This document shows, in pieces, positions 1 to 33,110 of a stretch of DNA of 38,163 nt; the stretch's first letter is position 1; the number at the start of each line of letters is the position of its first letter. A program made the position numbers and the translations under genes. Source of the DNA: a virus; IMG/VR virus record IMGVR_UViG_3300045988_182321, positions 1 to 38,163 of that record; one strand, written 5' to 3'. Below the pieces are notes generated by a model, which did no database searches, was not told the origin of the DNA, and worked only from the letters and a program-made list of their open reading frames with translations.

Positions 1-75
1 AGTTGCGTTGATTATAGAGTTTAAGGAGTAAAAAATGCGACAATTAACTGAAATAAAAAATTTGTCAAAAAAAAC
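1..75. repeat. Left copy of exact 75-bp terminal duplication
   Basis: Identical base for base to 38089-38163. Confidence 0.97.
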
Positions 76-238
76 ACCGCTGTTTCGTGAATTTTGCAAA
101 ATCAACGGCTTAAAAAACGGCGATTATTACAGCGCGATTGATTTTCTCGAATATTGCGATGACTTGTCTTGGGAACAAACAATAGAAATAACGCGTAAAT
201 ATGAACCTGATTTTAAGTTTGAAGATTGTAATTTATGA
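35..238 (+). CDS. Hypothetical protein (67 aa)
   Basis: ATG preceded by AAGGAG at 23-28. Start also present in the right terminal copy (38123). No recognisable motif. Confidence 0.6.
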   Translation: MRQLTEIKNLSKKTPLFREFCKINGLKNGDYYSAIDFLEYCDDLSWEQTIEITRKYEPDFKFEDCNL

Positions 239-262
239 TTTTCCGTTTTGAGGAGTAAAAAA

Positions 263-1297
263 ATGAAAACATACAGATTAACCGAAAAAGACATTGAAAA
301 TAAGCCTGTACTTGCGGTCGGATATAAGGCATTTGCACCCAAGTGGGAAACAAAGCATGGTGATTATTGCTATGCCGATGAAACAGGCAATGTATTGAAC
401 ACAATACACACTGTTGACGGGGATATTGCGGAATGTTGTTGGGGGTTGCATTTTTCTAAAAAGCCACAAGATTGCTTTAATTTTTACGAAAGCGTACAGT
501 GGAATAATTTTGCGAAAGTGGAAGCGTATGACGCATGCCTCGATAGCAGAAAGAAAAGCGTAGCAAAAACTTTGAAAATTGTTAAAATATATACTTTTGA
601 CGAATTTATCCGTCTTATTCAAGAAGATTTACAAGGCGACGGCGTGAATTGCAGTTTTGGCGTGAATGAGAGCAACGGTGTGCATGGTAGCAACGGCGTG
701 AGTTACAGCAACGGCGTGAATTGCAGTTTTAGCGTAAATGAGAGCAACGGTGTGAATCGGAGCAACGGTGTGAATCGGAGCAACGGCGTGAATTGCAGCA
801 ACGGTGTGCATGTCAGCAACGGTGTGCATGTCAGCAACGGTGTGAATCGGAGCAACGGTGTGAATCGGAGCAACGGCGTGAGTTACAGCGACGGCGTGAA
901 TTGCAGCAACGGTGTGCATGGTAGCAACGGCGTGAGTTACAGCAACGGCGTGAATTGCAGTTTTGGCGTAACAAAATGCAAAGCCGTTTCCCGGTGCATT
1001 TTTTGTCAAAATCAAGAGGGAGCAAGGCTTAAATTGTTTAATAAAAGAACAACAAGGGCAAGGTATGAAGCGGTTTTGTGCAAGATATTATCGTTCGATT
1101 GGTATCCGAAATTTAATAATGCCGAAGAGTTAAAAGGTTACCTTGAATGGTATGAAACGAACATTCCTGCAATAGTACGAGTGCCGAACGAAGTCGCATG
1201 GTCGTTTATGCCGAAAGAAATGAAAGAATATTTGCAATCGTTACCTGAATACGACGAAGCAGTATTCAAGAAAGTTACGGGAAAGATTGATGAGTAA
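263..1297 (+). CDS. Repeat protein: conserved N-terminal module (GYKAF...CxWGLHF), 18 tandem hexapeptides (G-V-x-x-S-N), C-terminal domain
   Basis: ATG 263 with GAGGAG at 250-255 (the track ORF starts at upstream TTG 248). I recall the N-terminal motif as a DUF7666-type phage module; this is unverified. The hexapeptide array is encoded by the 18-bp DNA repeat. Confidence 0.75.
   Translation: MKTYRLTEKDIENKPVLAVGYKAFAPKWETKHGDYCYADETGNVLNTIHTVDGDIAECCWGLHFSKKPQDCFNFYESVQWNNFAKVEAYDACLDSRKKSVAKTLKIVKIYTFDEFIRLIQEDLQGDGVNCSFGVNESNGVHGSNGVSYSNGVNCSFSVNESNGVNRSNGVNRSNGVNCSNGVHVSNGVHVSNGVNRSNGVNRSNGVSYSDGVNCSNGVHGSNGVSYSNGVNCSFGVTKCKAVSRCIFCQNQEGARLKLFNKRTTRARYEAVLCKILSFDWYPKFNNAEELKGYLEWYETNIPAIVRVPNEVAWSFMPKEMKEYLQSLPEYDEAVFKKVTGKIDE
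641..964 (+). repeat. 18 tandem copies of an 18-bp unit (consensus ggYgtgaatNNNagcaac), in frame
   Basis: Read directly. Units encode GVNCSF, GVNESN, GVHGSN, GVSYSN, GVNRSN, GVHVSN and similar variants; several adjacent units are identical. Confidence 0.95.
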
Positions 1298-1514: not shown

Positions 1515-2157
1515 ACAGTCCGGGACATTTAAGCGGGCATTCCAAAAGCAAGGCATTACGGCTTTTGACTACGATATTCGTAATGATTTTGATGAAACGG
1601 ACAATGTGGTTGATTTGTTTCGTGAAATCGAAAGAGCGTATGCGGGGGAGCAATCCGTGTTCAATGAAATCGGAAGTGATGATTTGATAATCGCATTTTT
1701 CCCTTGCGTAAGATTTGAAGAGCAAATACAATTGGCTTTTCGTGGAACTCAATACCAGTTGAAAAACAAAAACGACGAGGAAAAGTTAGAATATGACTTG
1801 CGACTACATCGCCAATTAGCCGATTTTTATGAAAAAGTGACTAAATTAGTAATTGTATGTTTACGCAAAAAGTTAAGACTTATCATTGAAAATCCGTATT
1901 CATCAACACATTATTTGACCAAATATTGGGCGTTAAAGCCGAAGATTATCGACAAAGACCGCAGAAAGAATGGCGACTACTACACAAAACCTACGCAATA
2001 TTGGTTTGCAAATTGTGAACCAAACGCCGAGCCTTTGTTTGAAGCCCCGGTATGGCGAGCCGAAAGAAAAACCATTGCGCACGTGAGAAATCAGGTCGCG
2101 AGGTCGCTTATATCTAACGAATACGCTGAACGATTTATAAAGGAGTATATTCTATGA
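1483..2157 (+). CDS. C5-cytosine-methyltransferase-like catalytic core without an obvious target-recognition domain (224 aa)
   Basis: Motif I-like FEQSGTF (aa 10-16), motif IV-like FFPCVRF (PC at aa 74-75) and motif VI-like IIENP (aa 134-138), in canonical order and spacing. The protein ends about 55 aa after the motif VIII region. Confidence 0.5.
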   Translation: MKINKVHCMFEQSGTFKRAFQKQGITAFDYDIRNDFDETDNVVDLFREIERAYAGEQSVFNEIGSDDLIIAFFPCVRFEEQIQLAFRGTQYQLKNKNDEEKLEYDLRLHRQLADFYEKVTKLVIVCLRKKLRLIIENPYSSTHYLTKYWALKPKIIDKDRRKNGDYYTKPTQYWFANCEPNAEPLFEAPVWRAERKTIAHVRNQVARSLISNEYAERFIKEYIL

Positions 2158-3164
2158 ATAACCAGCGAACCAAAGAAGATTTGAGGGAATTGCAGGCGTT
2201 ACCGCTTGACTTAAAAATTCTCAAAACCAAAAATCGCATAAAAGAGTTCGTTAATTATTATGGCGGCATTGATTATTGCAGAGTTTCCACGAGCGGCGGT
2301 AAAGACAGTACGGTGCTATGGTATATCGTCAAAGAGTTATATCCCGAAGCGAAAGGCGTGTTTTGCGACACAGGACTTGAATATCCCGAAATACGGCAGT
2401 TTGTTAAAACATTAGGCGATATTGAGTTTGTTCGACCGAAAATGAGGTTTGACGAGGTTATAAAAACATACGGTTATCCCGTTATCGGCAAAGAAGTGGC
2501 GGACTGCGTTTACTGGGCGAAAAGAGGAAATCAAAGCAGAATTGAACGCTTGAACGGAACGTGGCGGGATAAGAACGGCGAACTGTCTATGTACAATGTT
2601 CCGAAGTACAAACCGTTGCTTGACGTTGATTTCAATATCAGCGGGAGGTGTTGCGGAATTATGAAAGAACAGTCCGTGTATCAACTTCATAAAGCAACAA
2701 TAACGGCTGTAATGGCAGAAGAAAGTCGTATGCGGTTGTCGGCGTGGCTGAAAACAGGTTGTAACGCTTTTAAGAAAAATAAGTCAAACCCGATGTCGTT
2801 TTGGACAAATCAAGACGTTTTGCAATTCTTAAAAAGTCGCAATATCCCGATAGCAAGCGTTTACGGCGACATTGTGTATAAAGGCGATGACGGGATGTTG
2901 TACGAAAACAGCATATGCGGAGGCAATCTCTGCACGACGGGCTGTCAACGCACAGGTTGTATGTTCTGCGCGTTCGGAGTGCATTTGGAAGAAGAGAGCC
3001 GTTTCGTACGCTTAAAGCAAACACACCCAAAGCATTACAAATACTGTATGGACGGTGGAGAGTATGTAGACGGGATATGGCAACCGAACAGCAAGGGCTT
3101 AGGTATGGCGCACGTATTAGACACGTTAAACCGCCTTTACGGGGAAGATTTTATTAAATATTGA
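2154..3164 (+). CDS. PP-loop ATP pyrophosphatase, PAPS-reductase-like family protein with C-terminal Cys cluster (336 aa)
   Basis: SGGKDS PP-loop at aa 47-52. CC dipeptide at aa 166-167. C-x4-C-x3-C-x4-C-x2-C at aa 255-272. ATGA overlap with the upstream ORF. Confidence 0.75.
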   Translation: MNNQRTKEDLRELQALPLDLKILKTKNRIKEFVNYYGGIDYCRVSTSGGKDSTVLWYIVKELYPEAKGVFCDTGLEYPEIRQFVKTLGDIEFVRPKMRFDEVIKTYGYPVIGKEVADCVYWAKRGNQSRIERLNGTWRDKNGELSMYNVPKYKPLLDVDFNISGRCCGIMKEQSVYQLHKATITAVMAEESRMRLSAWLKTGCNAFKKNKSNPMSFWTNQDVLQFLKSRNIPIASVYGDIVYKGDDGMLYENSICGGNLCTTGCQRTGCMFCAFGVHLEEESRFVRLKQTHPKHYKYCMDGGEYVDGIWQPNSKGLGMAHVLDTLNRLYGEDFIKY

Positions 3165-3173
3165 GGTGATAAA

Positions 3174-3749
3174 ATGAAAAGAGTAGCAATTACAGACATA
3201 GCGTTCGCAACGCTTATAGACGGAGTTAAGAACAGTTTGAGCAAAGACATGTATCGTCTTGATTTGTCTTGCATAAAACTTGTGGTAAAAAAGGACGAAA
3301 TCACGGCGTATTCGTGCGACGGATATTCGGCGGCAAAAGTCACCGTCCCGAACTTAAACCCGATAGACGAAGAATTTGAGTGCTTAATAAAGCCGATAGC
3401 GGTTAAGCCAAGTAAAGGTCGTCCGCAGGATATCATCGTGGAAGTAGTAGACGGCGATACATATGTGGAAGTGCCTGTTGAGTATGGAAAGCTAAAATAT
3501 TGCTTCACGCCGCCAAATGACAATTTTGTGAATATTGAAAAGATAATCGAAAGCACCGATAAAAACGACACGTATACTATCCACGTTCAGCCCGCTTTGC
3601 TTATAAAGGCGTTAAAAGCGGCACAAAAGACGAACAAGTATGTGAAAGTACAATTCGGGGATAAACTATCACCGTTTATTATCAAGGCAAAATGTGGCGA
3701 AACGAACAATTGGCAAATAGTGTTGCCGGCAAGAGGAGAGAAAGAATGA
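3174..3749 (+). CDS. Hypothetical protein, possibly a beta-sliding-clamp-like (DnaN-like) fold, 191 aa
   Basis: GAGGTG SD. Weak by-eye resemblance to DnaN segments (LSCIKLVVKKDEITAYSCDG; C-terminal WQIVLPAR). About half the size of DnaN. Confidence 0.3.
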   Translation: MKRVAITDIAFATLIDGVKNSLSKDMYRLDLSCIKLVVKKDEITAYSCDGYSAAKVTVPNLNPIDEEFECLIKPIAVKPSKGRPQDIIVEVVDGDTYVEVPVEYGKLKYCFTPPNDNFVNIEKIIESTDKNDTYTIHVQPALLIKALKAAQKTNKYVKVQFGDKLSPFIIKAKCGETNNWQIVLPARGEKE

Positions 3750-6177: not shown

Positions 6178-6568
6178 AAGAAGAGAGCTTGAAAGGGCGT
6201 TCTATGATTATCAAAAAAACCGTATGGAAGCGGCGGAGTACATATCGGACTTATGCTCGACCAAATCCCCGGTGTTGGAGAATTTAGGTCACGGAAGCGG
6301 CATAAGCGACCCGACGGCGCTATCGGGAGTTAAGCTTGCCGAGTACAAAAAATACCTGTGGTGTGAAGTGGTTGAAAAGACCTGCACGACGTTTCGCTTC
6401 GAGTACGAATATAAACTCATCAAACTGCGATATTTCAATCACATATCCCGAAACAGCGTCATAAGTTACCTTAACGTGTCAGAGCGAACGTATTGCTATT
6501 GGCTTGACAGAGTTCTTATAACGGCGGAGCGTTGGGCGTACGAGTTGGGAGTGATTAAAGATGAATAG
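6164..6568 (+). CDS. Late-gene transcriptional activator, RinA/ArpU-like (134 aa)
   Basis: Size, position upstream of the packaging genes, and layout (N-terminal LERAFYDY, central SDPT, C-terminal HTH-like ISRNSVISYLNVSERTYCYWLDRV) resemble staphylococcal RinA-type regulators. Confidence 0.6.
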   Translation: MDNGRRRELERAFYDYQKNRMEAAEYISDLCSTKSPVLENLGHGSGISDPTALSGVKLAEYKKYLWCEVVEKTCTTFRFEYEYKLIKLRYFNHISRNSVISYLNVSERTYCYWLDRVLITAERWAYELGVIKDE

Positions 6569-6935: not shown

Positions 6936-7700
6936 ATGGCGGAAGAGTTTGTTAAGACCGGACTTATGGACGGCTTAGGTGAGAGCGACGAAATAGAACG
7001 TTGGATAACGGTCAAGGGCAATCACGTTCCGATAAAGAAAGGACAGTCGCAGGAAGAAGCAATCAAGCAGGCTTTCGGTGAAGCGGAAAAGACGCCCGAA
7101 ATGAAGAAAAGCGGGCATATGGACGGCTTGGGAGAGCATAGCGAAAAAACTTCGGATGACACCGCCGAATCGGGATATAAAAGTGTAGACACGAAAACGT
7201 TCGTAAACACGCTGGCGGAAGCAAAAGCGACGGTAGACCCTGCAAAAGCGTGGAGAGTTTCGTCCCCGAATAGCGCAGTGTTTGACGAAGAACATCCGAA
7301 CGCAAAGAAATACACCGCTCCCGGCGGAAGCACCGTTGCAATAACGCCCGACGGAGATATAGTGGCGGTTTGCAAAAACGAAAACGACAGTTTGCACGGC
7401 AGACAGTTAATGGAATTTGCGGTAAAGAACGGCGGCGTTAAACTCGATTCTTTTTCGGGTAATCATAAGTTTTACACGCGAAACGGCTTCGAGCCTGTTT
7501 CGTGGACACGTTTTGATAAAAAATATGCGCCGCCTGGATGGACGCCCGAATATGAAGAAGAACCCGTAGTATTTTACAAATATACAGGCAAAGCGACAAA
7601 CGAATCAATCGAAGATTTTAAAAACAGAGTGCCAGAGAGTAAAGATTACTTTGCGGCGCAGAAAATGAGAGATGACCAAATAGGAGGTAAAGAAGAATGA
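6936..7700 (+). CDS. Protein with repeated G-(L/H)-MDGLGE motif and C-terminal GNAT-like acyltransferase fold (254 aa)
   Basis: GGAGAAAG SD. C-terminal VAITPDGDIVAV...GRQLMEFAVKNGGVKLD...NHKFYTRNGFEPV resembles the GNAT beta4-alpha3-beta5-alpha4 core. Confidence 0.5.
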   Translation: MAEEFVKTGLMDGLGESDEIERWITVKGNHVPIKKGQSQEEAIKQAFGEAEKTPEMKKSGHMDGLGEHSEKTSDDTAESGYKSVDTKTFVNTLAEAKATVDPAKAWRVSSPNSAVFDEEHPNAKKYTAPGGSTVAITPDGDIVAVCKNENDSLHGRQLMEFAVKNGGVKLDSFSGNHKFYTRNGFEPVSWTRFDKKYAPPGWTPEYEEEPVVFYKYTGKATNESIEDFKNRVPESKDYFAAQKMRDDQIGGKEE

Positions 7701-7942
7701 AAGAAGTTGCTCCTACTTACGAAGAATTTTACAATGCAGTAAAAAAATATTTTTGGAGCGGGTGGAAGAAACTTTCCGAAAAGGAAGTTGATGACTATTT
7801 GCATTCGGAAGAAGCACAAGAAGAAATCAATGACAGATATAACGAAAAACTAAATAAATTCAAAAAAGGGATAATCAGCCGTAAAGTGTTTATGATAGGT
7901 GGCGCAAGCGCGGTTGGGAATTGTCTGATACTGATGTACTAA
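7697..7942 (+). CDS. Hypothetical protein (81 aa)
   Basis: AGGAGG SD, ATGA overlap. Confidence 0.6.
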   Translation: MKEVAPTYEEFYNAVKKYFWSGWKKLSEKEVDDYLHSEEAQEEINDRYNEKLNKFKKGIISRKVFMIGGASAVGNCLILMY

Positions 7943-7955
7943 GGAGAAAAAGGGA

Positions 7956-8105
7956 ATGAAAACATACTATGTATACGATTTTCAGACGGATGAGTTTCTT
8001 TGCGAGGTGCGTGCTTGGTCGGTGGTAGACGCCGAAATAAGAGCGTGCAAACAATTAAACAAAGGAAGCGACGATGTTTATGCGTTCACGGAGAAATTAG
8101 ACTAA
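7956..8105 (+). CDS. Hypothetical small protein (49 aa; below the ORF-track cutoff)
   Basis: AAGGAGAAAAAGGGA then ATG. Translated by hand as MKTYYVYDFQTDEFLCEVRAW...TEKLD. Followed by a terminator. Confidence 0.5.
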   Translation: MKTYYVYDFQTDEFLCEVRAWSVVDAEIRACKQLNKGSDDVYAFTEKLD

Positions 8106-8114
8106 CACAACCAT

Positions 8115-8145
8115 AAAGGAGCAGACAAAAAAATCTGCTCCTTTT
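8115..8145. terminator. Bidirectional rho-independent terminator between convergent genes
   Basis: AAAGGAGCAGA-caaaaaaa-TCTGCTCCTTTT: 11-bp perfect stem. Confidence 0.85.
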
Positions 8146-8149
8146 AATA

Positions 8150-8317
8150 TTACTTTTGCAAAGATTTAAGATACTGTTCAATTAGAAAGAGAATATATTC
8201 GGGCGGCTTGCGAATACCTTGTTCCCAATGACGGATTGTTCCCGCCGGGATATGTACAAGCGCGGCGAATTTGTCTTGACTAAGCCCGGTGCTTTCACGT
8301 AGTTGTTTAATGGTCAT
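8150..8317 (-). CDS. Mini XRE-family HTH protein (55 aa); Aca-like or antitoxin-like regulator
   Basis: Internal ATG of track ORF 8150-8539. MTIKQLRESTGLSQDKFAALVHIPAGTIRHWEQGIRKP is a canonical XRE HTH. Starts 5 nt after the stop of the upstream ORF. Confidence 0.75.
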   Translation of the reverse strand: MTIKQLRESTGLSQDKFAALVHIPAGTIRHWEQGIRKPPEYILFLIEQYLKSLQK

Positions 8318-8321
8318 AGCT

Positions 8322-8600
8322 TTATACCGATTGAATGAACTTATCGCCTTGTGCTTCTGCAACGGTGTTATATTCGGCGATGTCGCATATAGTGTCTGAT
8401 TGCTCATCTTCATCAAGCTCATTCCAATTTTCAGGAACTTCATATTCGCGAATTTCAACCTTACAGTCGAAATCGCCTTTGGGTATATAATCGGCGTAGA
8501 AGTTAAACGATTCTTTCGCTTTTTCAAGATTTGTACCATTGTACTTTACCCATTCATCATAAGTGCCTGTTCTCATTTCAACAACTTCATAATACTTCAT
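8322..8600 (-). CDS. Small strongly acidic protein (92 aa; about 23 D/E vs 9 K/R); anti-defence candidate
   Basis: GAGGAG SD 6 nt upstream of the ATG, downstream of a consensus promoter. No family recognised. Confidence 0.7.
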   Translation of the reverse strand: MKYYEVVEMRTGTYDEWVKYNGTNLEKAKESFNFYADYIPKGDFDCKVEIREYEVPENWNELDEDEQSDTICDIAEYNTVAEAQGDKFIQSV

Positions 8601-8648
8601 AAATTACTCCTCGGACGATTTATTCGTCCTTTTTGTTTATTTGTCTAT

Positions 8649-8678
8649 ATTATATACCATTGGAATATATTTGTCAAG
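8649..8678 (-). promoter_or_regulatory. Consensus promoter TTGACA-18-TATAAT on the minus strand
   Basis: Reverse complement reads ttgaca aatatattccaatggtat ataat-type, with TTGACA at 8678-8673 and TATAAT at 8654-8649. A GGACGA-N5-TCGTCC inverted repeat (8613-8629) lies between the promoter and the SD. Confidence 0.7.
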
Positions 8679-8716
8679 CATTTTTTAATAAAAATCTAAA
8701 AAAATTTAAAAAATAA

Positions 8717-8745
8717 AACAATCTCAAAAAAGAGGTTGTTTTTTT
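8717..8745. terminator. Hairpin with flanking A/T tracts (bidirectional terminator/insulator)
   Basis: AACAATCTC-aaaaaa-GAGGTTGTT followed by a T-tract: 9-bp stem with one G-T pair. Confidence 0.55.
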
Positions 8746-8759
8746 ATTTGGAGAAGCCT

Positions 8760-9407
8760 ATGGATGAATTTAAGAAAGTCGGCTTAATGGACGGAGCGGG
8801 CGAAAGTGAAGAAACGCACGAAACCGCGAATAAGTACCGTTTGCCGTTTGCGTTATGCGAACAAAAGGGAATAGCCACACAAAAAGGCTGGACACCTCGT
8901 GACGCGTGGGAGGCTTTGAAGAACGCCGGGCATATCGGAGAAGTAGAAAAGGAATACAAAGAGTTTTACGACAATTTGAAGAAAGACAAGACAACCGATA
9001 CGCAACCGGACAAGCAACCTCAAAAGGAAGCGGTACAAAACGAAGCACCGAAGAAAGAAACAATGTATTCAGTAGTTCAAAACAATGAAACTCATGCAAG
9101 AATACACAAAGATAAATGGAAAGCCGTAAAACCGTACAGCTTAAAAGAAGTGTGGGTCAATCCGTCTAAATACGGTATTGGCTATTACTTTACGGCAGAT
9201 ATCAACGGCAAACGCTTTTTTGTATCAATAGACAATAAAACCGCAAACGACCGGCATTGGTACGATATACAAGAAACAAAAGGCGGAGCTTTCAAAATCA
9301 ACGCAAACGGCTATTTGTATCTTGATGACAAAGGTTATGCAAGATACGCAATCAAAGACTTAACAGAGTATGAGCAATTAACTCATAAATACGTTTATAA
9401 GGAGTAA
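8760..9407 (+). CDS. Hypothetical protein sharing the N-terminal GLMDGxGES motif with ORF 6936 (215 aa)
   Basis: GGAG SD at 8751-8754. ATG 8760 preferred over track TTG 8736. Confidence 0.65.
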   Translation: MDEFKKVGLMDGAGESEETHETANKYRLPFALCEQKGIATQKGWTPRDAWEALKNAGHIGEVEKEYKEFYDNLKKDKTTDTQPDKQPQKEAVQNEAPKKETMYSVVQNNETHARIHKDKWKAVKPYSLKEVWVNPSKYGIGYYFTADINGKRFFVSIDNKTANDRHWYDIQETKGGAFKINANGYLYLDDKGYARYAIKDLTEYEQLTHKYVYKE

Positions 9408-9413
9408 AAAATT

Positions 9414-9734
9414 ATGGTAACAAATTTAACACGCGAAGATATGGAATGCATGATGAGTGCAAACCCGAGTATGCGAGAGCCGGAAGAAGAGTTAAAGGAG
9501 AAAGTCTATCCAAATACAGCGAAAGAGCGCGTAGAGCAAGAGTTAGACGAGTTACACGAAAAGATACTTAAATTGACTTGCTTTCTATACGGCAGAAAGA
9601 TACCGGAACGCGTCGTAACGCCTGAAATGCGAGAACTTATGAAACAACAGCTCAAACATATGCAAGCGTATGCAGGAACGCTTCAAGACCGTTTAATTAT
9701 ATGGGATTTATACAAGAACGAAGATAAGGAGTGA
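9414..9734 (+). CDS. Hypothetical helical protein (106 aa)
   Basis: AAGGAG SD. Confidence 0.65.
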   Translation: MVTNLTREDMECMMSANPSMREPEEELKEKVYPNTAKERVEQELDELHEKILKLTCFLYGRKIPERVVTPEMRELMKQQLKHMQAYAGTLQDRLIIWDLYKNEDKE

Positions 9735-9738
9735 GATT

Positions 9739-10197
9739 ATGTCTAAAAAGAAAAATTCAGAGCCGAAGGAGCGGTACAGAGCCGAATGGTTGGGACAGCC
9801 ATTAAGCACAGAAGTAGCACGAGAAAGAGGCTCAAAGGGCGGTATTGCTTCGGTAAAGGTTCGTAAAGAGAAAAAAACGCTAAGAGAAACGATGAAATTG
9901 CTTCTTAAAGAGCAGTTCAAATTCAACAATCCCGTAACGGACGAGTTCACAAGCGGTGACGGCTATGCGATGTGGTGTGCGCAAGTAACAGCGGGAGCTT
10001 TGAAAGGCGACAGAAAGTGCCTTGAATACCTGCGTGATATTATCGGGGAGAATCCGTCCACCAAAGTTGTTGGTGCGGAAGAAGAGCCGCTCCGTAAGGT
10101 GGAAATAGAGTTTGTAGACAAGAGCAAGCGTTCTAAAACGGAAAGCGACCCGAAAATAGTCGGAGAGCAAAGTCCGACCGTCAGCGATGAAAGTTGA
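9739..10197 (+). CDS. Putative terminase small subunit (152 aa)
   Basis: Lies immediately upstream of, and overlaps, the large terminase. Basic N-terminal RGSKGGIASVKVRKEKKTLRE segment is typical of small DNA-binding packaging proteins. Confidence 0.45.
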   Translation: MSKKKNSEPKERYRAEWLGQPLSTEVARERGSKGGIASVKVRKEKKTLRETMKLLLKEQFKFNNPVTDEFTSGDGYAMWCAQVTAGALKGDRKCLEYLRDIIGENPSTKVVGAEEEPLRKVEIEFVDKSKRSKTESDPKIVGEQSPTVSDES

Positions 10198-11623
10198 GAT
10201 TGCGGACGTATATGAACCTGCGTTCGATATGTCCACGCCGAAATGTTGCAAAAACTTATGGTATGCGCCGAGAGCGTGCGGCAAATCGTCGGCGTTAGGT
10301 CGTATCTTATGGCTGTATTATATTAACTTTCCCGATTATGACGTGGCAATAGGCGTAGACAGTCTTACAAACGCGGGCGATGGCGTATTGAGCGAGTTTC
10401 AGTCTTTCCTTGAAAGCGAGAACCTTGCGGACGATTGGATATTCAGTGCCAAATCGTGCTATATGAAAGGTGCGCGCAATCAGATACGCTCGTATGCTGT
10501 TCAGACGAATAAGTTAGACAACGTGAACGCAACGAAGTCGAAGAAACTCATACGTCCTGTTTCGTTGTTCGTAATGGACGAAGTACAGAAGTTACACAAC
10601 AAGGGCATTTTGGATAACTGTTTATCCACGTTCTTGCGACAGATGAAAGCAGGGCATAGCAAGGTTATCCTCGCAGGGAACCCCGACCGTGCGGCGATGT
10701 GGTTTGATGACTACTACAAAGTCAAGTCGGAAGATGACGAGTGGACGGTTATAAAACCGACATATCTCGATATCATAGCGTGGCTTCCCGACGCGCTCAT
10801 ACACGAAATCGAGATGATGAGAAAAACCGACCCCGTGTCGTACGCTCAAATATACTTAGGCGACCTCGATGTGGCAGGTTGGGAACAAACGTTCCATTCG
10901 TTTATCGAAAGAGAACATTATATACCGAGAGAAGAGTTGCTTGCCGCTCCGCAAAAAACGGGCGATATGCTTCACTCTATCGTTATCGGCATAGACGACG
11001 CGGAAAGTAAGGACGCAGTAGCGGGCGAATCCGTTATGGTGCAAAGAAACGGAATGATGAAAGTCAACGAGGGATTGTATATCTCTTGCAAGGAATTGCC
11101 CGTAAAGCCTGCATTAACGGAGCGGTGCGCTATCGTAGCGGAATATCTCGACTATATACAAGCGCACTTCAACCCCGAACGTGCTATACCGATAATAATG
11201 GTGTTCGACTGCGCGAGCGGTATGTATAGACAAATGGCGGTTATGAAACGAACAGACCGCAATTTTATGCGTTGGAGAAACGTGTTATTAAAGCCTTACA
11301 CAACCAAAGGCGAGAAAGAGGAACAATTGGACGAAGTAAACACGGCGTTTGCGAACGGGATATTGCAAGTCGTGAACGTAGACAGGTATTCGCCGAAATA
11401 TTCAAACGCTATGCTTGTCAAACAGATAAAAGCGTTGCGGTACTTGGATAACAAGAAGATAGACCCGACCATTCCGAACGACTGCACGGACGCATTACAG
11501 TACGCTGTTATGACAGTGCTTGCGAACCCGTATCGTTTGTCGTTCCCGGAAAGACGCGCTATTTACGACGCGGACAACGGAGCGGAAGCGTTCCTCGAAA
11601 AACTGAAATATGGAGAACTGTAA
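10187..11623 (+). CDS. terL: Terminase large subunit (478 aa)
   Basis: Walker A-like APRACGKSS near the N-terminus, Walker B-like SLFVMDE, size and position. Confidence 0.85.
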   Translation: MKVEIADVYEPAFDMSTPKCCKNLWYAPRACGKSSALGRILWLYYINFPDYDVAIGVDSLTNAGDGVLSEFQSFLESENLADDWIFSAKSCYMKGARNQIRSYAVQTNKLDNVNATKSKKLIRPVSLFVMDEVQKLHNKGILDNCLSTFLRQMKAGHSKVILAGNPDRAAMWFDDYYKVKSEDDEWTVIKPTYLDIIAWLPDALIHEIEMMRKTDPVSYAQIYLGDLDVAGWEQTFHSFIEREHYIPREELLAAPQKTGDMLHSIVIGIDDAESKDAVAGESVMVQRNGMMKVNEGLYISCKELPVKPALTERCAIVAEYLDYIQAHFNPERAIPIIMVFDCASGMYRQMAVMKRTDRNFMRWRNVLLKPYTTKGEKEEQLDEVNTAFANGILQVVNVDRYSPKYSNAMLVKQIKALRYLDNKKIDPTIPNDCTDALQYAVMTVLANPYRLSFPERRAIYDADNGAEAFLEKLKYGEL

Positions 11624-31411: not shown

Positions 31412-32650
31412 TCAGCCCTCAAAGCGTTTAAGTTTTACAAAATAATCAGTAAAAGGCGATTTTTCGCGTTTCATAAAATGCGTATAAACGTCTTTTGTCA
31501 TCGATAAAGTAGCGTGACCGAGCCATTTTTTGGTTAAAAGGTCGTCAATTTGTGTTAAATGGCACATTGTGGCAAAAGTATGGCGCGTAGAATGAACGGA
31601 AACGTCGGTAAAGCCTAATTTTACAAAAGTTCTGCCGAAAGCGAGTTTAACAGCGTTGTAGGTATAATTCTCCGAAACGCAGTAGTCGAGTTCTTCTCGT
31701 AAACTCTCGTCATAATTGATAAAACGTTGTGACGTGCGGTTTTTCGTGTCGTGTTCAATAATACCGTCGCGGTTCATCATCTTATTGACCCGTATTTCGT
31801 CATCACCTATATCGTCGGGCGTGAGAGCCAAAAATTCACTTATGCGCATACCCGTACAGCAAAGGACGGTAAAGAGCCGACTATACTTTTCGGGTAAAGC
31901 CGTAAGGATAGCCGTTTGTTCTTCCGCAGTAAAAGCGCGTTTATGCTCCGACTTAACTTTCGGGCGTTTCAAGAGTTCGCAAGGGTTTTTGCGTATTTTC
32001 TCCGAAATGACCGCTTGACGAAGAGCGGAATTAATAACGTCGAATACTTTGCGCCGTGAGTTTTCGCCGTTTATAGATATAAAGAATTGTTGCAGAATAT
32101 CGGGCGTAAGTTGTTCCATAGGCGTTGCGATTGTCTTTATCTTATTAAATGCGTCCATATAACCTCTTTTCGAGTTCGAGCGTAAGTACGGTTCTTTATA
32201 TGTTTCGTACCAATAATTAACCCATTCGATAAAAGACGAGCCTTTCTTTGTGACGCGTTCCGTTTTTTCCTTTTCTTTTAAAGGGATATTCTTTAATTTT
32301 TCAATAACCTCCTTTTGAGTTTTAGCCGTTACCGTGTGGCGTTGGAATCTACCCTCCCACCACGTGTAGCGGCTATTTTTGTTTTTCCGGGAACGTTTCC
32401 GAATAGACCCCGCCCCGAAAGGCAGATAAACAGACATTTTTTCCTCCGCCTGAATATCCGATAACAACCTGAAATTAACGTCAGGATAAGGGGACGGCTT
32501 TCCGCCCTCACTTACAATACGAAAAGGCGATTTGCGCGTAATCGGTTCATTTGCGAAATCGTCGTTTCCTATTATTTTGCCGCACAATAACGAGGCTTTT
32601 TGTAAAGCCTCCGCTAAAAGGTCGAGCAATCTCCTTGTATCATCTTCCAC
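31412..32650 (-). CDS. int: Tyrosine recombinase / phage integrase (412 aa from GTG; alternative ATG at 32437 gives 341 aa)
   Basis: HSTRHTFAT (H-x-x-R) and LGHATLSMTKDVYTH (catalytic Tyr) near the C-terminus. Arm-binding-like GSIRKRS...YTWWEGRF. Adjacent to attP. Confidence 0.9.
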   Translation of the reverse strand: MEDDTRRLLDLLAEALQKASLLCGKIIGNDDFANEPITRKSPFRIVSEGGKPSPYPDVNFRLLSDIQAEEKMSVYLPFGAGSIRKRSRKNKNSRYTWWEGRFQRHTVTAKTQKEVIEKLKNIPLKEKEKTERVTKKGSSFIEWVNYWYETYKEPYLRSNSKRGYMDAFNKIKTIATPMEQLTPDILQQFFISINGENSRRKVFDVINSALRQAVISEKIRKNPCELLKRPKVKSEHKRAFTAEEQTAILTALPEKYSRLFTVLCCTGMRISEFLALTPDDIGDDEIRVNKMMNRDGIIEHDTKNRTSQRFINYDESLREELDYCVSENYTYNAVKLAFGRTFVKLGFTDVSVHSTRHTFATMCHLTQIDDLLTKKWLGHATLSMTKDVYTHFMKREKSPFTDYFVKLKRFEG

Positions 32651-32674: not shown

Positions 32675-33025
32675 TTAACCTACATTGCTTTGGGAATTTT
32701 TGAGAAACGCTTCGGCATAGCCGAGAACTTTTCCTTGCTGTACTGCTGTCAGTTGCCTGAACAGAGCGAGCATTTCTATCTCTTGCGATGTTAAGTTACT
32801 TGATTGTGTACGAGTCGCTTTCGGAGCAGGCTCCGTGTAAAAATAATTCTCGGGCAAATCAAACGCTTCGGAAATTCTTGCAAGCGTGCGCCGAGAGGGG
32901 GCGGCTTTCCCTGTTTTCCAACTTTGTATAGAACCATTGGAAATTCCCACTTTAATCTCAAAGTTTCGAGCGTTAAGCCCTTTTTTCTCCATTAACTCAT
33001 AAATTTTATTCAAAATAATATCCAT
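32675..33025 (-). CDS. CI-like repressor, XRE-family HTH, no S24 peptidase domain (116 aa)
   Basis: KKGLNARNFEIKVGISNGSIQSWKTGKAAPS HTH. Divergent from the Cro-like gene and upstream of int. Confidence 0.8.
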   Translation of the reverse strand: MDIILNKIYELMEKKGLNARNFEIKVGISNGSIQSWKTGKAAPSRRTLARISEAFDLPENYFYTEPAPKATRTQSSNLTSQEIEMLALFRQLTAVQQGKVLGYAEAFLKNSQSNVG

Positions 33026-33038
33026 AATTTTTCTCCAT

Positions 33039-33102
33039 AGAAAAAATTCTTAAAAAAGTTCGGAAAAATTCCTAAAATCGCTTGACATTTAGGAAATTTT
33101 CC
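33039..33102. promoter_or_regulatory. Three operator-like palindromes (AGAAAAAATTCT, GGAAAAATTCC, GGAAATTTTCC)
   Basis: Located at 33039-33050, 33062-33072 and 33092-33102. The third lies in the spacer of the rightward promoter. Confidence 0.55.
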
Positions 33103-33110
33103 TATATAAT
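33082..33110 (+). promoter_or_regulatory. Rightward consensus promoter TTGACA-17-TATAAT (PR-like)
   Basis: ttgaca tttaggaaattttccta tataat. About 390 nt upstream of the cro-like ATG. Confidence 0.75.

Follow-up and report, generated by a model that had tools for sequence, protein, structure and literature searches.

The operons in which anti-CRISPR (acr) genes are associated with an anti-CRISPR-associated (aca) regulator gene are the closest described counterparts of the locus considered here. In the published acr-aca operons, a DNA inverted repeat located in the promoter is followed by an RNA hairpin in the 5' untranslated region; Aca1 and Aca2 bind the hairpins of their own operons, and similar hairpins have been predicted in the operons of Aca10 and Aca12 (PMC13551039). 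Aca10, a helix-turn-helix (HTH) protein of 65 amino acids (aa), binds as a dimer to a 21-bp palindrome occurring in its own promoter (PMC9410881), and validated Acrs, e.g., AcrIIA24, AcrIIA29, AcrIIA31 and AcrIIA32, are found both beside and fused to an Aca (PMC8934645). The present analysis is devoted to a minus-strand transcription unit (8745-8115) of the IMG/VR virus record IMGVR_UViG_3300045988_182321, a stretch of 38,163 nucleotides (nt) hereafter called the window. The unit consists of a promoter, a leader hairpin, the gene of a 92-aa acidic protein and the gene of a 55-aa HTH protein, with terminators on both sides. We give about even chances to the reading of this cassette as an autoregulated accessory operon of the acr-aca type. 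It fits this kind of operon as a candidate, yet it cannot be assigned to any named Aca or Acr family; it also differs from the described operons in that cassettes of this type contain no validated or recognisable Acr or other anti-defence cargo, and in that the hosts are gut Clostridia.

With respect to their organization, the two kinds of loci share small gene(s) followed by a co-oriented small HTH gene within a mobile element, as well as a very strong promoter overlapped by a palindrome, here a candidate operator, and a hairpin, here a predicted one, in the leader RNA ahead of the start codon (PMC13551039). In both, the regulator is conserved whereas the upstream genes vary between related phages, and the cargo occurs both separate from and fused to the regulator (PMC8934645). 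The exchange of the cargo is directly visible in four sister phages (L024, L025, L026 and L028), which possess in the same slot HTH relatives of 82-84% identity. According to blastn, they retain the segments 8751-8607 (terminator, promoter and leader down to the ribosome-binding site) and 8322-8115 (HTH gene and terminator), while a 106-aa gene, the first cargo gene of these cassettes, and a 117-aa acidic gene, with an additional 71-aa acidic gene in L024, take the place of the segment 8606-8323, which corresponds exactly to the 92-aa gene. The acr-aca-like layout put forward in the original prediction from this DNA is thus borne out, and the guilt-by-association survey that it proposed turned out positive. 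Scanning IMG/VR with an alignment of the HTH yielded 207 relatives, 80 of which were read. A promoter agreeing with at least 11 of the 12 consensus positions lies within 1.6 kb upstream at 54 of these 80 loci, and 49 of the 54 contain one to four open reading frames (ORFs) between this promoter and a terminal HTH gene. The cargo ORFs belong to about 14 unrelated clusters, mostly small and acidic (net charge -4 to -24), with examples of 77 aa at -14, 71 aa at -7 to -12, 95-100 aa at -2 to -14, 94 aa at -24, 106 aa at -14 and 179 aa at -12. None of the clusters matches a Pfam or PHROG family, and a PDB profile search with three other cargo proteins returned nothing. When the neighbouring cargo proteins were compared with Pfam, PHROGs, NCBIfam and PADLOC, only their HTH parts scored. 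It is by this operational signature, a conserved small regulator located behind exchangeable small acidic genes, that loci for anti-CRISPR and other anti-defence functions have been discovered.

The promoter possesses a perfect TTGACA/TATAAT pair, in agreement with the original prediction; on the minus strand, the -35 element occupies 8677-8672 and the -10 element 8654-8649, with a spacer of 17 nt. Shuffles of the 38-kb window lead one to expect 0.01 copies of this exact pattern, and two are present; equivalent promoters (11-12 positions of 12) lie ahead of 11 among the 13 related cassettes that were examined, the two others being L017 and an operon-internal gene in L001. The spacer contains a palindrome, TATATTCCA-A-TGGTATATA (8669-8651, centre 8660), in which eight of the nine pairs match and which overlaps the -10 element. 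Spacer palindromes that are perfect occur in relatives of the cassette, e.g., over 21 bp in L066 (ATATCACTCA-A-TGAGTGATAT), and in L038 (GCACTCA-A-TGAGTGC), L013/L014 (TACGCTA-N-TAGCGTA) and L012 (CACCA-T-TGGTG). Within the group to which the window belongs, the spacer sequence varies in step with the recognition helix of the HTH: the helix AGTIRH is associated with a spacer containing T(T/C)CCAATGGTA and a -10 element TATAAT, and the helix VATIQT with a spacer containing TGTCAATGT(G/A)G and a -10 element TACAAT. An 18-bp repeat, TTGACA-N6-TGTCAA, was considered as the operator of the window cassette and rejected, since, perfect though it is in the type-B cassettes (L008, L025, L026, L028), it matches at only four of six positions in the window. 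The second copy of the perfect TTGACA-17-TATAAT pattern, at 33082-33110 on the plus strand, has a perfect spacer palindrome too (AGGAAA-T-TTTCCT); it adjoins the Xre repressor and integrase genes, both on the minus strand, and therefore probably serves the lysogeny switch as its main early promoter and operator.

The leader measures about 45 nt and its sole structure is a 6-bp GC stem-loop (8629-8613) that touches the GAGGAG ribosome-binding site. The GGACGA-N5-TCGTCC repeat announced between the promoter and the Shine-Dalgarno sequence is indeed there, while the role of repressor operator that the original prediction assigned to it appears unlikely: judging from the way both elements vary among relatives, the 19-bp palindrome of the promoter spacer is the more likely operator of the HTH. 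Almost identical recognition helices go with different repeats, AGTIRH with GGACGA/TCGTCC in the window and AGTIRN with GGGC/GCCC in L009. In the variants from L008 (GGGCGA/TCGTCC) and L026 (GGACGA/TCGTTC), pairing is kept only through G-U, which works in the sense RNA and not in DNA, and this argues against a DNA operator. Hairpins of unrelated sequence occur at the equivalent position in L009, L015, L019, L021 and L010, including cassettes equipped with other HTH types (GACCGC/GCGGTC in L015, GGGGG/CCCCC in L021), and L019 has a leader hairpin although it contains no HTH gene. On the basis of the differing hairpins accompanying like helices, the G-U variants and the HTH-less L019 cassette, the repeat was rejected as DNA operator of the HTH, and the hairpin is best read as a putative leader RNA element. 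A comparison of the region 7900-8900 with Rfam gave only sub-threshold, terminator-like matches.

The 55-aa protein is a minimal HTH of the Xre type, as previously suggested, recognized by Pfam HTH_3 with an expectation value (E) of 1.5e-10; the gap that separates its ORF from that of the 92-aa protein measures 4 nt (AGCT) instead of the 5 nt first reported. It has no ribosome-binding site of its own, which makes translational coupling to the 92-aa gene probable. Six near-identical contigs (L002-L007) carry the cassette. Compared with the L004 copy, the HTH gene shows seven synonymous and no nonsynonymous changes, the copies of sister contigs differ synonymously only, and comparison with more distant copies gives a ratio of nonsynonymous to synonymous rates (dN/dS) of 0.11-0.17; these values indicate that the HTH gene is real and under purifying selection. 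In the public gene predictions, the HTH gene is left uncalled in all six contigs, where it is intact (about 6284-6451), and surveys built on those gene calls would consequently miss this family of regulators.

Among solved structures, the closest to the HTH are Atu1735, the HigA-2 antitoxin and Aca10 (PDB code 7XI5). The alignment with Aca10, a protein from Pseudomonas citronellolis (PMC9410881), covers residues 5-51, i.e., nearly the full length, with E = 4e-4, and places R36 of the window HTH opposite R44, a critical DNA-contacting residue of Aca10. Both proteins are minimal HTHs (65 aa for Aca10), and the repression of the Aca10 operon via the palindrome in its own promoter has its counterpart here in a candidate palindrome. 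In contrast, the match amounts to 23 bits only, and the operator sequence, the host phylum and the cargo (AcrIC6/AcrIC7) differ. This match is the only link found, through the comparison with solved structures, to the named Aca families (Aca1-Aca14), and by this comparison the window HTH is assigned to none of them. The best match in NCBIfam is the MqsA family, at 2.7e-6 and far below the family cutoff.

The 92-aa protein contains 23 Asp/Glu for 9 Lys/Arg residues, corresponding to a net charge of -14.5, close to the value of about -14 first announced, and to an isoelectric point (pI) of 4.1. It is soluble and devoid of any catalytic motif. It has relatives of 88%, 59% and 55% identity, which support the reality of its gene, and the gene of the 88% relative (L008) differs by 5 synonymous and 11 nonsynonymous changes, a dN/dS of about 0.5 derived from small numbers. 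Compared with the values obtained for the HTH gene, these counts indicate a faster evolution of the cargo. When 1.84 billion representative proteins were searched exhaustively with a HMMER profile, 42 relatives of 64-241 aa were obtained, which conform to the pattern YY.V...DE[WF]..Y.G.D.E.A...E.R.Y..PD...D.DE...A.C..GYD; the family is rare, with some 45 sequences, all from gut metagenomes. No family match was obtained for the protein and 44 relatives in Pfam, PHROGs, NCBIfam and PADLOC, where the HTH parts alone scored. No relative was recovered by tblastn against GenBank phages and PLSDB plasmids, by close-family scans of IMG/VR and GTDB genomes (alignment A1) or by a PDB sequence-profile search with the family, nor did the supplementary files of the paper on AcrIIA24-32 contain the motifs of the family or of the HTH.

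The AlphaFold2 model built with the family alignment (predicted local distance difference test, pLDDT, 89.8; predicted template modelling score 0.78) exhibits the topology β1-β2-α1-β3-α2-β4. Foldseek searches of the PDB with two models gave no significant match (best E values 0.15 and 0.34); AcrIIC3 appeared at E of about 1 with a template modelling score of 0.45, which is not significant. The model thus has no counterpart among solved structures, be it a toxin, an antitoxin, an anti-CRISPR or another anti-defence protein. In the BFVD library of viral structures, it resembles only uncharacterised small phage proteins, some of them DUF7336. Both the family and its predicted fold appear to be undescribed so far. 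An assignment to split HicB-like antitoxins, suggested by a 'G-T-x-x-E-A' helix, was abandoned for want of fold or profile support.

These properties bear upon the idea of a toxin-first type II toxin-antitoxin system similar to HigBA or MqsRA, with the 92-aa protein as toxin and the HTH as its antitoxin. The order of a small protein followed by an Xre HTH, the 'WExGxR' HTH subtype and the resemblance of the HTH to the HTH domains of HigA-2 and MqsA are indeed shared with HigB2-HigA2 and MqsR-MqsA, and the locus is probably autoregulated. Such toxins are, however, typically basic, in contrast to the strongly acidic window protein, and the model, with a pLDDT near 90, contains no fold of the RelE/ParE, HigB, MqsR or HicA kind (best Foldseek E 0.34). 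In the sister phages it is the supposed antitoxin that is kept and the supposed toxin that is swapped for unrelated genes. Several proteins of the family are fused to an HTH and others have no HTH partner (L001, L019, L125), so that the pairing is not obligate; moreover, the 55-aa HTH possesses no toxin-neutralising extension or domain. We therefore regard a toxin-first system as highly improbable, in line with the original prediction, which had already ranked it as the less likely possibility.

Relatives of the 92-aa protein occur beside DNA-binding modules or are fused to them. Six members comprise the acidic domain followed by an HTH in a single polypeptide (P0011, P0032, P0039, P0045, P0046 and P0041), Pfam HTH_3 being scored in four of them. 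The fused HTH is of the same 'NWEQGxR..P.Y' type as the window HTH in the first five and of a different type in P0041; in P0023 and P0044, an HTH-like tail was read from the sequence and is scored by no library. Among the separate pairs, L009 contains a 57-aa HTH about 76% identical to that of the window, preceded by a perfect promoter and followed by a terminator. In L013, the family gene, a 56-aa acidic gene and a 58-aa HTH gene follow right after a prophage integrase gene, whereas L015 consists of an 86-aa acidic gene, the family gene and a 68-aa HTH of another type, reverse-oriented between the early genes and the terminase of an unrelated phage with a P22-type portal. In L021, where an integrase is adjacent, the family gene precedes a 171-aa protein whose C-terminus is of the same type as the P0041 fusion. 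A 63-aa HTH_3 protein adjoins the family member of L124/L126, and an 80-aa HTH stands immediately upstream of that of L112. Altogether, the family of the 92-aa protein is paired with at least four unrelated HTH types. Other members do without: in L019, the family gene is followed by an 87-aa acidic gene, and in L125 the member stands alone.

The fused forms recall the Acr-Aca fusions, i.e., the orthologues of AcrIIA24, AcrIIA29, AcrIIA31 and AcrIIA32, and AcrIF24 (PMC8934645, PMC9638941), in which an inhibitor domain and an autoregulatory HTH likewise share one polypeptide. The parallel is provided here by the five proteins combining the 92-aa domain with an 'NWEQGxR' HTH. It differs in that the 92-aa domain has no sequence or fold similarity to these inhibitors and in that the two parts are separate genes in the window.

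The same fusions invite the alternative that the two products of the cassette form one regulator, the acidic domain being the partner of the HTH, a sensor, an oligomerisation module or a titrating DNA mimic. The 55-aa HTH, in which no domain for dimerisation or sensing is obvious, would be consistent with such an arrangement, as would an HExxH peptidase (ImmA/IrrE- or DUF6782-like) near the members of L014 and L112, reminiscent of ImmR/ImmA-type switches. A specific partnership should nevertheless co-evolve with one partner, whereas the acidic family is associated with several HTH types, or with none in L001, L019 and L125, and the sister phages pair the same HTH, promoter and leader with unrelated cargo and lack the 92-aa gene. 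This alternative is accordingly held to be improbable. The peptidases themselves are small metallopeptidases located near two independent family members, at 19-453 (minus strand) in L014 and 3122-3541 (plus strand) in L112, with weak Peptidase_M78/IrrE-like and DUF6782-like matches; ImmR/ImmA and CapH/CapP are the repressor-protease pairs that they bring to mind.

It is also conceivable that the acidic domain is a decoy or orphan antitoxin which neutralises a host toxin of a toxin-antitoxin or abortive-infection system, like the toxin-binding domain of MqsA or HigA-2, and which has been split off from its HTH; such a decoy is a special case of counter-defence. The architecture of the fused forms, a would-be neutralising domain with a C-terminal 'WEQGxR' HTH, is that of an antitoxin, the cassette contains no toxin gene, and both the MqsA match in NCBIfam and the presence of HigA-2 among the closest solved relatives point in the same direction. 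The similarity of the HTH is, however, generic to the Xre class, the acidic domain resembles no antitoxin domain in PDB profile or Foldseek searches, and the other cargo families are mutually unrelated and hence do not imply a single class of targets. We consider this proposal improbable for the window cassette.

Other small genes recur around the family. The 106-aa cargo of the sister phages belongs to a family of about 100-107 aa (KATxF..QI.VIY.KAK..ELKVEKW) occurring in L001 (5688-5990), L010 (5572-5895) and L025 (127-447), for which no library or PDB match was found; its homologues precede the family member in L001 and a fused protein in L010. An acidic protein of 56-57 aa (MKIYTAD...YEEEDRK..YT..FYDIVNE) accompanies the 92-aa family in two gene orders, in L013 (6310-6480) and L116 (2295-2468), which suggests a second recurrent companion cargo. 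A 61-aa basic protein located upstream of the family in L115-L123 was examined as a ribbon-helix-helix regulator and set aside, as Pfam gave no support.

The carrier of the cassette is a temperate siphovirus-like phage of gut Clostridia: its genome includes integrase, terminase and portal genes, the relatives of its large terminase occur in Clostridia/Bacillota genomes assembled from metagenomes, and the cassette-bearing contigs originate in gut metagenomes. The cassette was correctly recognized from the outset as the sole reverse-strand unit of a long forward block (248-31149), which is not, however, a late region at this point, since the cassette stands where the early/accessory genes give way to the packaging genes (large terminase 10187-11623). 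A second reverse-strand region corresponds to the lysogeny module, which includes the genes of an integrase (31412-32650) and of an Xre repressor (32675-33025). Related cassettes occupy comparable accessory slots, beside an integrase (L013, L021), after a holin (L010) or, again, at the early/packaging junction (L015). In L001, an unrelated phage, the homologue P0003 occupies the third position of an early operon, where the genes of a sigma factor, SSB and PolA come after it, a location that fits a function at the time of infection.

This distribution has to be confronted with the view that the cassette delivers some other kind of prophage accessory cargo, produced in the lysogen to the advantage of host or prophage and responsible, e.g., for superinfection exclusion, defence against other phages or modulation of a host process, or else an inhibitor of an essential host protein, used for host takeover and, being harmful, held at a low level by the HTH. 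The slots beside integrases and after a holin are those usual for prophage accessory genes, the unit, equipped with a promoter and terminators of its own, runs counter to the phage transcription, tight autorepression of so strong a promoter would suit a harmful product, and in L001 a phage sigma factor gene closely follows the homologue. The proteins known to act in exclusion and defence are as a rule enzymes or reside in the membrane, unlike the soluble, acidic 92-aa cargo without catalytic motif. Moreover, one homologue belongs to the early operon of a phage that encodes a polymerase, which suggests that it acts during infection, and about 14 unrelated types of small acidic cargo stand behind one regulator, a situation that, to our knowledge, has so far been described for counter-defence loci. 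This explanation is thus rather unlikely, while deserving more credit than the preceding ones.

In this respect, the components of the acr-aca reading do not all have the same strength. Its regulatory half, which associates a strong promoter, autorepression at the spacer palindrome and insulation by terminators, is well supported by the comparison of related cassettes, even if autorepression itself, the identity of the operator and the role of the hairpin as RNA are what we infer from the pattern of conservation. The counter-defence function of the 92-aa protein and its putative target are proposed from guilt by association only. Several observations weigh against the reading as a whole. No cargo, the 92-aa family included, matches a known anti-defence protein by sequence or fold in the searches made against Pfam, PHROGs, NCBIfam, PADLOC and the PDB; a validated Acr neighbour formally defines an Aca, and the HTH family has consequently no such neighbour. 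The similarity of the HTH to Aca10 is no stronger than that to HigA-2 or Atu1735. The palindrome of the window is AT-rich and imperfect (8/9 pairs), and may therefore partly reflect the composition of the promoter. The leader hairpin is absent from the main, largest HTH group of IMG/VR and is thus not a family-wide feature. The same layout could serve other payloads, e.g., for superinfection exclusion or host takeover, and, the host being placed to class level only, no defence system can be named.

Under the acr-aca reading, the host RNA polymerase would fire from the consensus promoter with its A/T-rich upstream tract as soon as the DNA becomes available. The leader of about 45 nt would present its GC stem-loop against the ribosome-binding site, the 92-aa acidic protein would be translated efficiently, and the HTH would be made by translational coupling and hence at a lower rate. 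The transcript would end at the 8145-8120 terminator, which would keep antisense transcription out of the early genes. As it accumulates, the HTH would bind as a dimer to the spacer palindrome and shut the promoter; in the manner of Aca1 and Aca2, it may in addition target the leader hairpin at the RNA level. The 92-aa protein would be an exchangeable payload, most probably a stoichiometric inhibitor of a host protein, whose partner would most likely be a component of an anti-phage immune system.

A bolder proposal, to which we attach little probability, is that the acidic β-β-α-β-α-β domain represents a new module working physically with small DNA-binding domains. It could be a DNA mimic titrating its own repressor and so setting the time of expression, or a decoy 'antitoxin' capturing a host toxin or nuclease, with the HTH as its tether or regulator; a physical partnership of this sort would explain the repeated fusions of the acidic domain. 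Either variant would amount to a counter-defence mechanism built on a fold without any solved relative.

Table 1. Features of the cassette, listed in the direction of its transcription (window coordinates; z, folding z-score).
Feature	Position	Strand	Evidence
Bidirectional hairpin with A/T runs on either side	8715-8742		Plus strand -13.8 kcal/mol, z = -4.5; minus strand -8.4 kcal/mol, z = -3.2
A/T-rich tract 5' of the -35 element, probably UP-element-like	8678-8714	-	Sequence TTTTATTTTTTAAATTTTTTTAGATTTTTATTAAAAAATGC
Consensus sigma-70/SigA-type promoter, TTGACA-17 nt-TATAAT	8649-8677	-	12/12 matches
Near-perfect 19-bp palindrome, candidate operator of the HTH	8651-8669		Read from the sequence; 8/9 pairs
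Stem-loop of the 5' untranslated region, GGACGA-AUAAA-UCGUCC, directly 5' of the ribosome-binding site	8613-8629	-	-8.7 kcal/mol, z = -2.8
Ribosome-binding site GAGGAG of the 92-aa gene	8607-8612	-	Sequence
Gene of the 92-aa acidic cargo protein	8322-8600, stop codon included	-	Family alignment, AlphaFold2 model
Gene of the 55-aa minimal Xre-type HTH, putative Aca-like autorepressor	8150-8317, stop codon included	-	HTH_3, E = 1.5e-10
Bidirectional intrinsic terminator	8120-8145		Minus strand -19.1 kcal/mol, z = -5.9; plus strand -16.3 kcal/mol, z = -8.1

The bracketing of the cassette by two bidirectional hairpin terminators, already noticed in the original prediction, is confirmed by folding (Table 1). 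The hairpin on the promoter side, kept together with the cassette in all sister contigs (homology across 8751-8607), insulates it from the plus-strand gene starting at 8760; this forward gene begins 15 nt past the hairpin and its T-run. The terminator on the opposite side, conserved among the sister contigs, serves both strands: it stops the minus-strand transcript of the cassette as well as the plus-strand transcript of the early genes. A sigma-70-like promoter of the plus strand was looked for between the two terminators (8145-8760) and none was found, which implies that the packaging and late genes need read-through, antitermination or another type of promoter.

With respect to the neighbouring genes, the two flanking forward genes, at 6936-7700 (254 aa) and 8760-9407 (215 aa), encode proteins that have the motif EFxKxGLMDGxGES in common at their N-termini (positions 6960 and 8781). 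Another copy of it, GHMDGLGE, occurs at 7113 in the 254-aa protein, and Pfam offers no convincing match for either product. Only part of the sister contigs contain the 215-aa gene, which places the cassette in a hypervariable stretch. The next plus-strand gene (9414-9734), just before the small terminase, codes for a 106-aa protein assigned to Pfam PF21825 (E = 7e-13), a crAss001_48-related family labelled 'Sequestin' in precomputed annotations; it is conserved beside the cassette in every sister contig. A PAPS-reductase-like gene occupies 2154-3164 on the plus strand, within the early region; a recent survey flagged this class of genes as possible phage counter-defence via DNA modification (PMC13551039). 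A megablast search of GenBank phages with the segment 7000-10000 of the window found nothing.

The current catalogues of anti-defence genes rest mostly on systems from Pseudomonas, Listeria, Streptococcus and enterobacteria, and gut Clostridia and their phages are poorly covered. In this context, the family of the 55-aa HTH appears suitable as a new marker of anti-defence candidates among these phages. If the acr-aca reading is true, the 'WEQGxR' HTH associated with a palindrome-bearing promoter would become a new Aca-like marker, pointing to about 14 uncharacterised, mostly acidic families distributed over more than 200 IMG/VR contigs, in addition to the 92-aa family. The cassette also offers a compact set of regulatory parts, consisting of a promoter, a candidate operator, a leader and a putative repressor. 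The families so designated would provide a prioritised list of candidate immune inhibitors for phages that abound in the human and animal gut.

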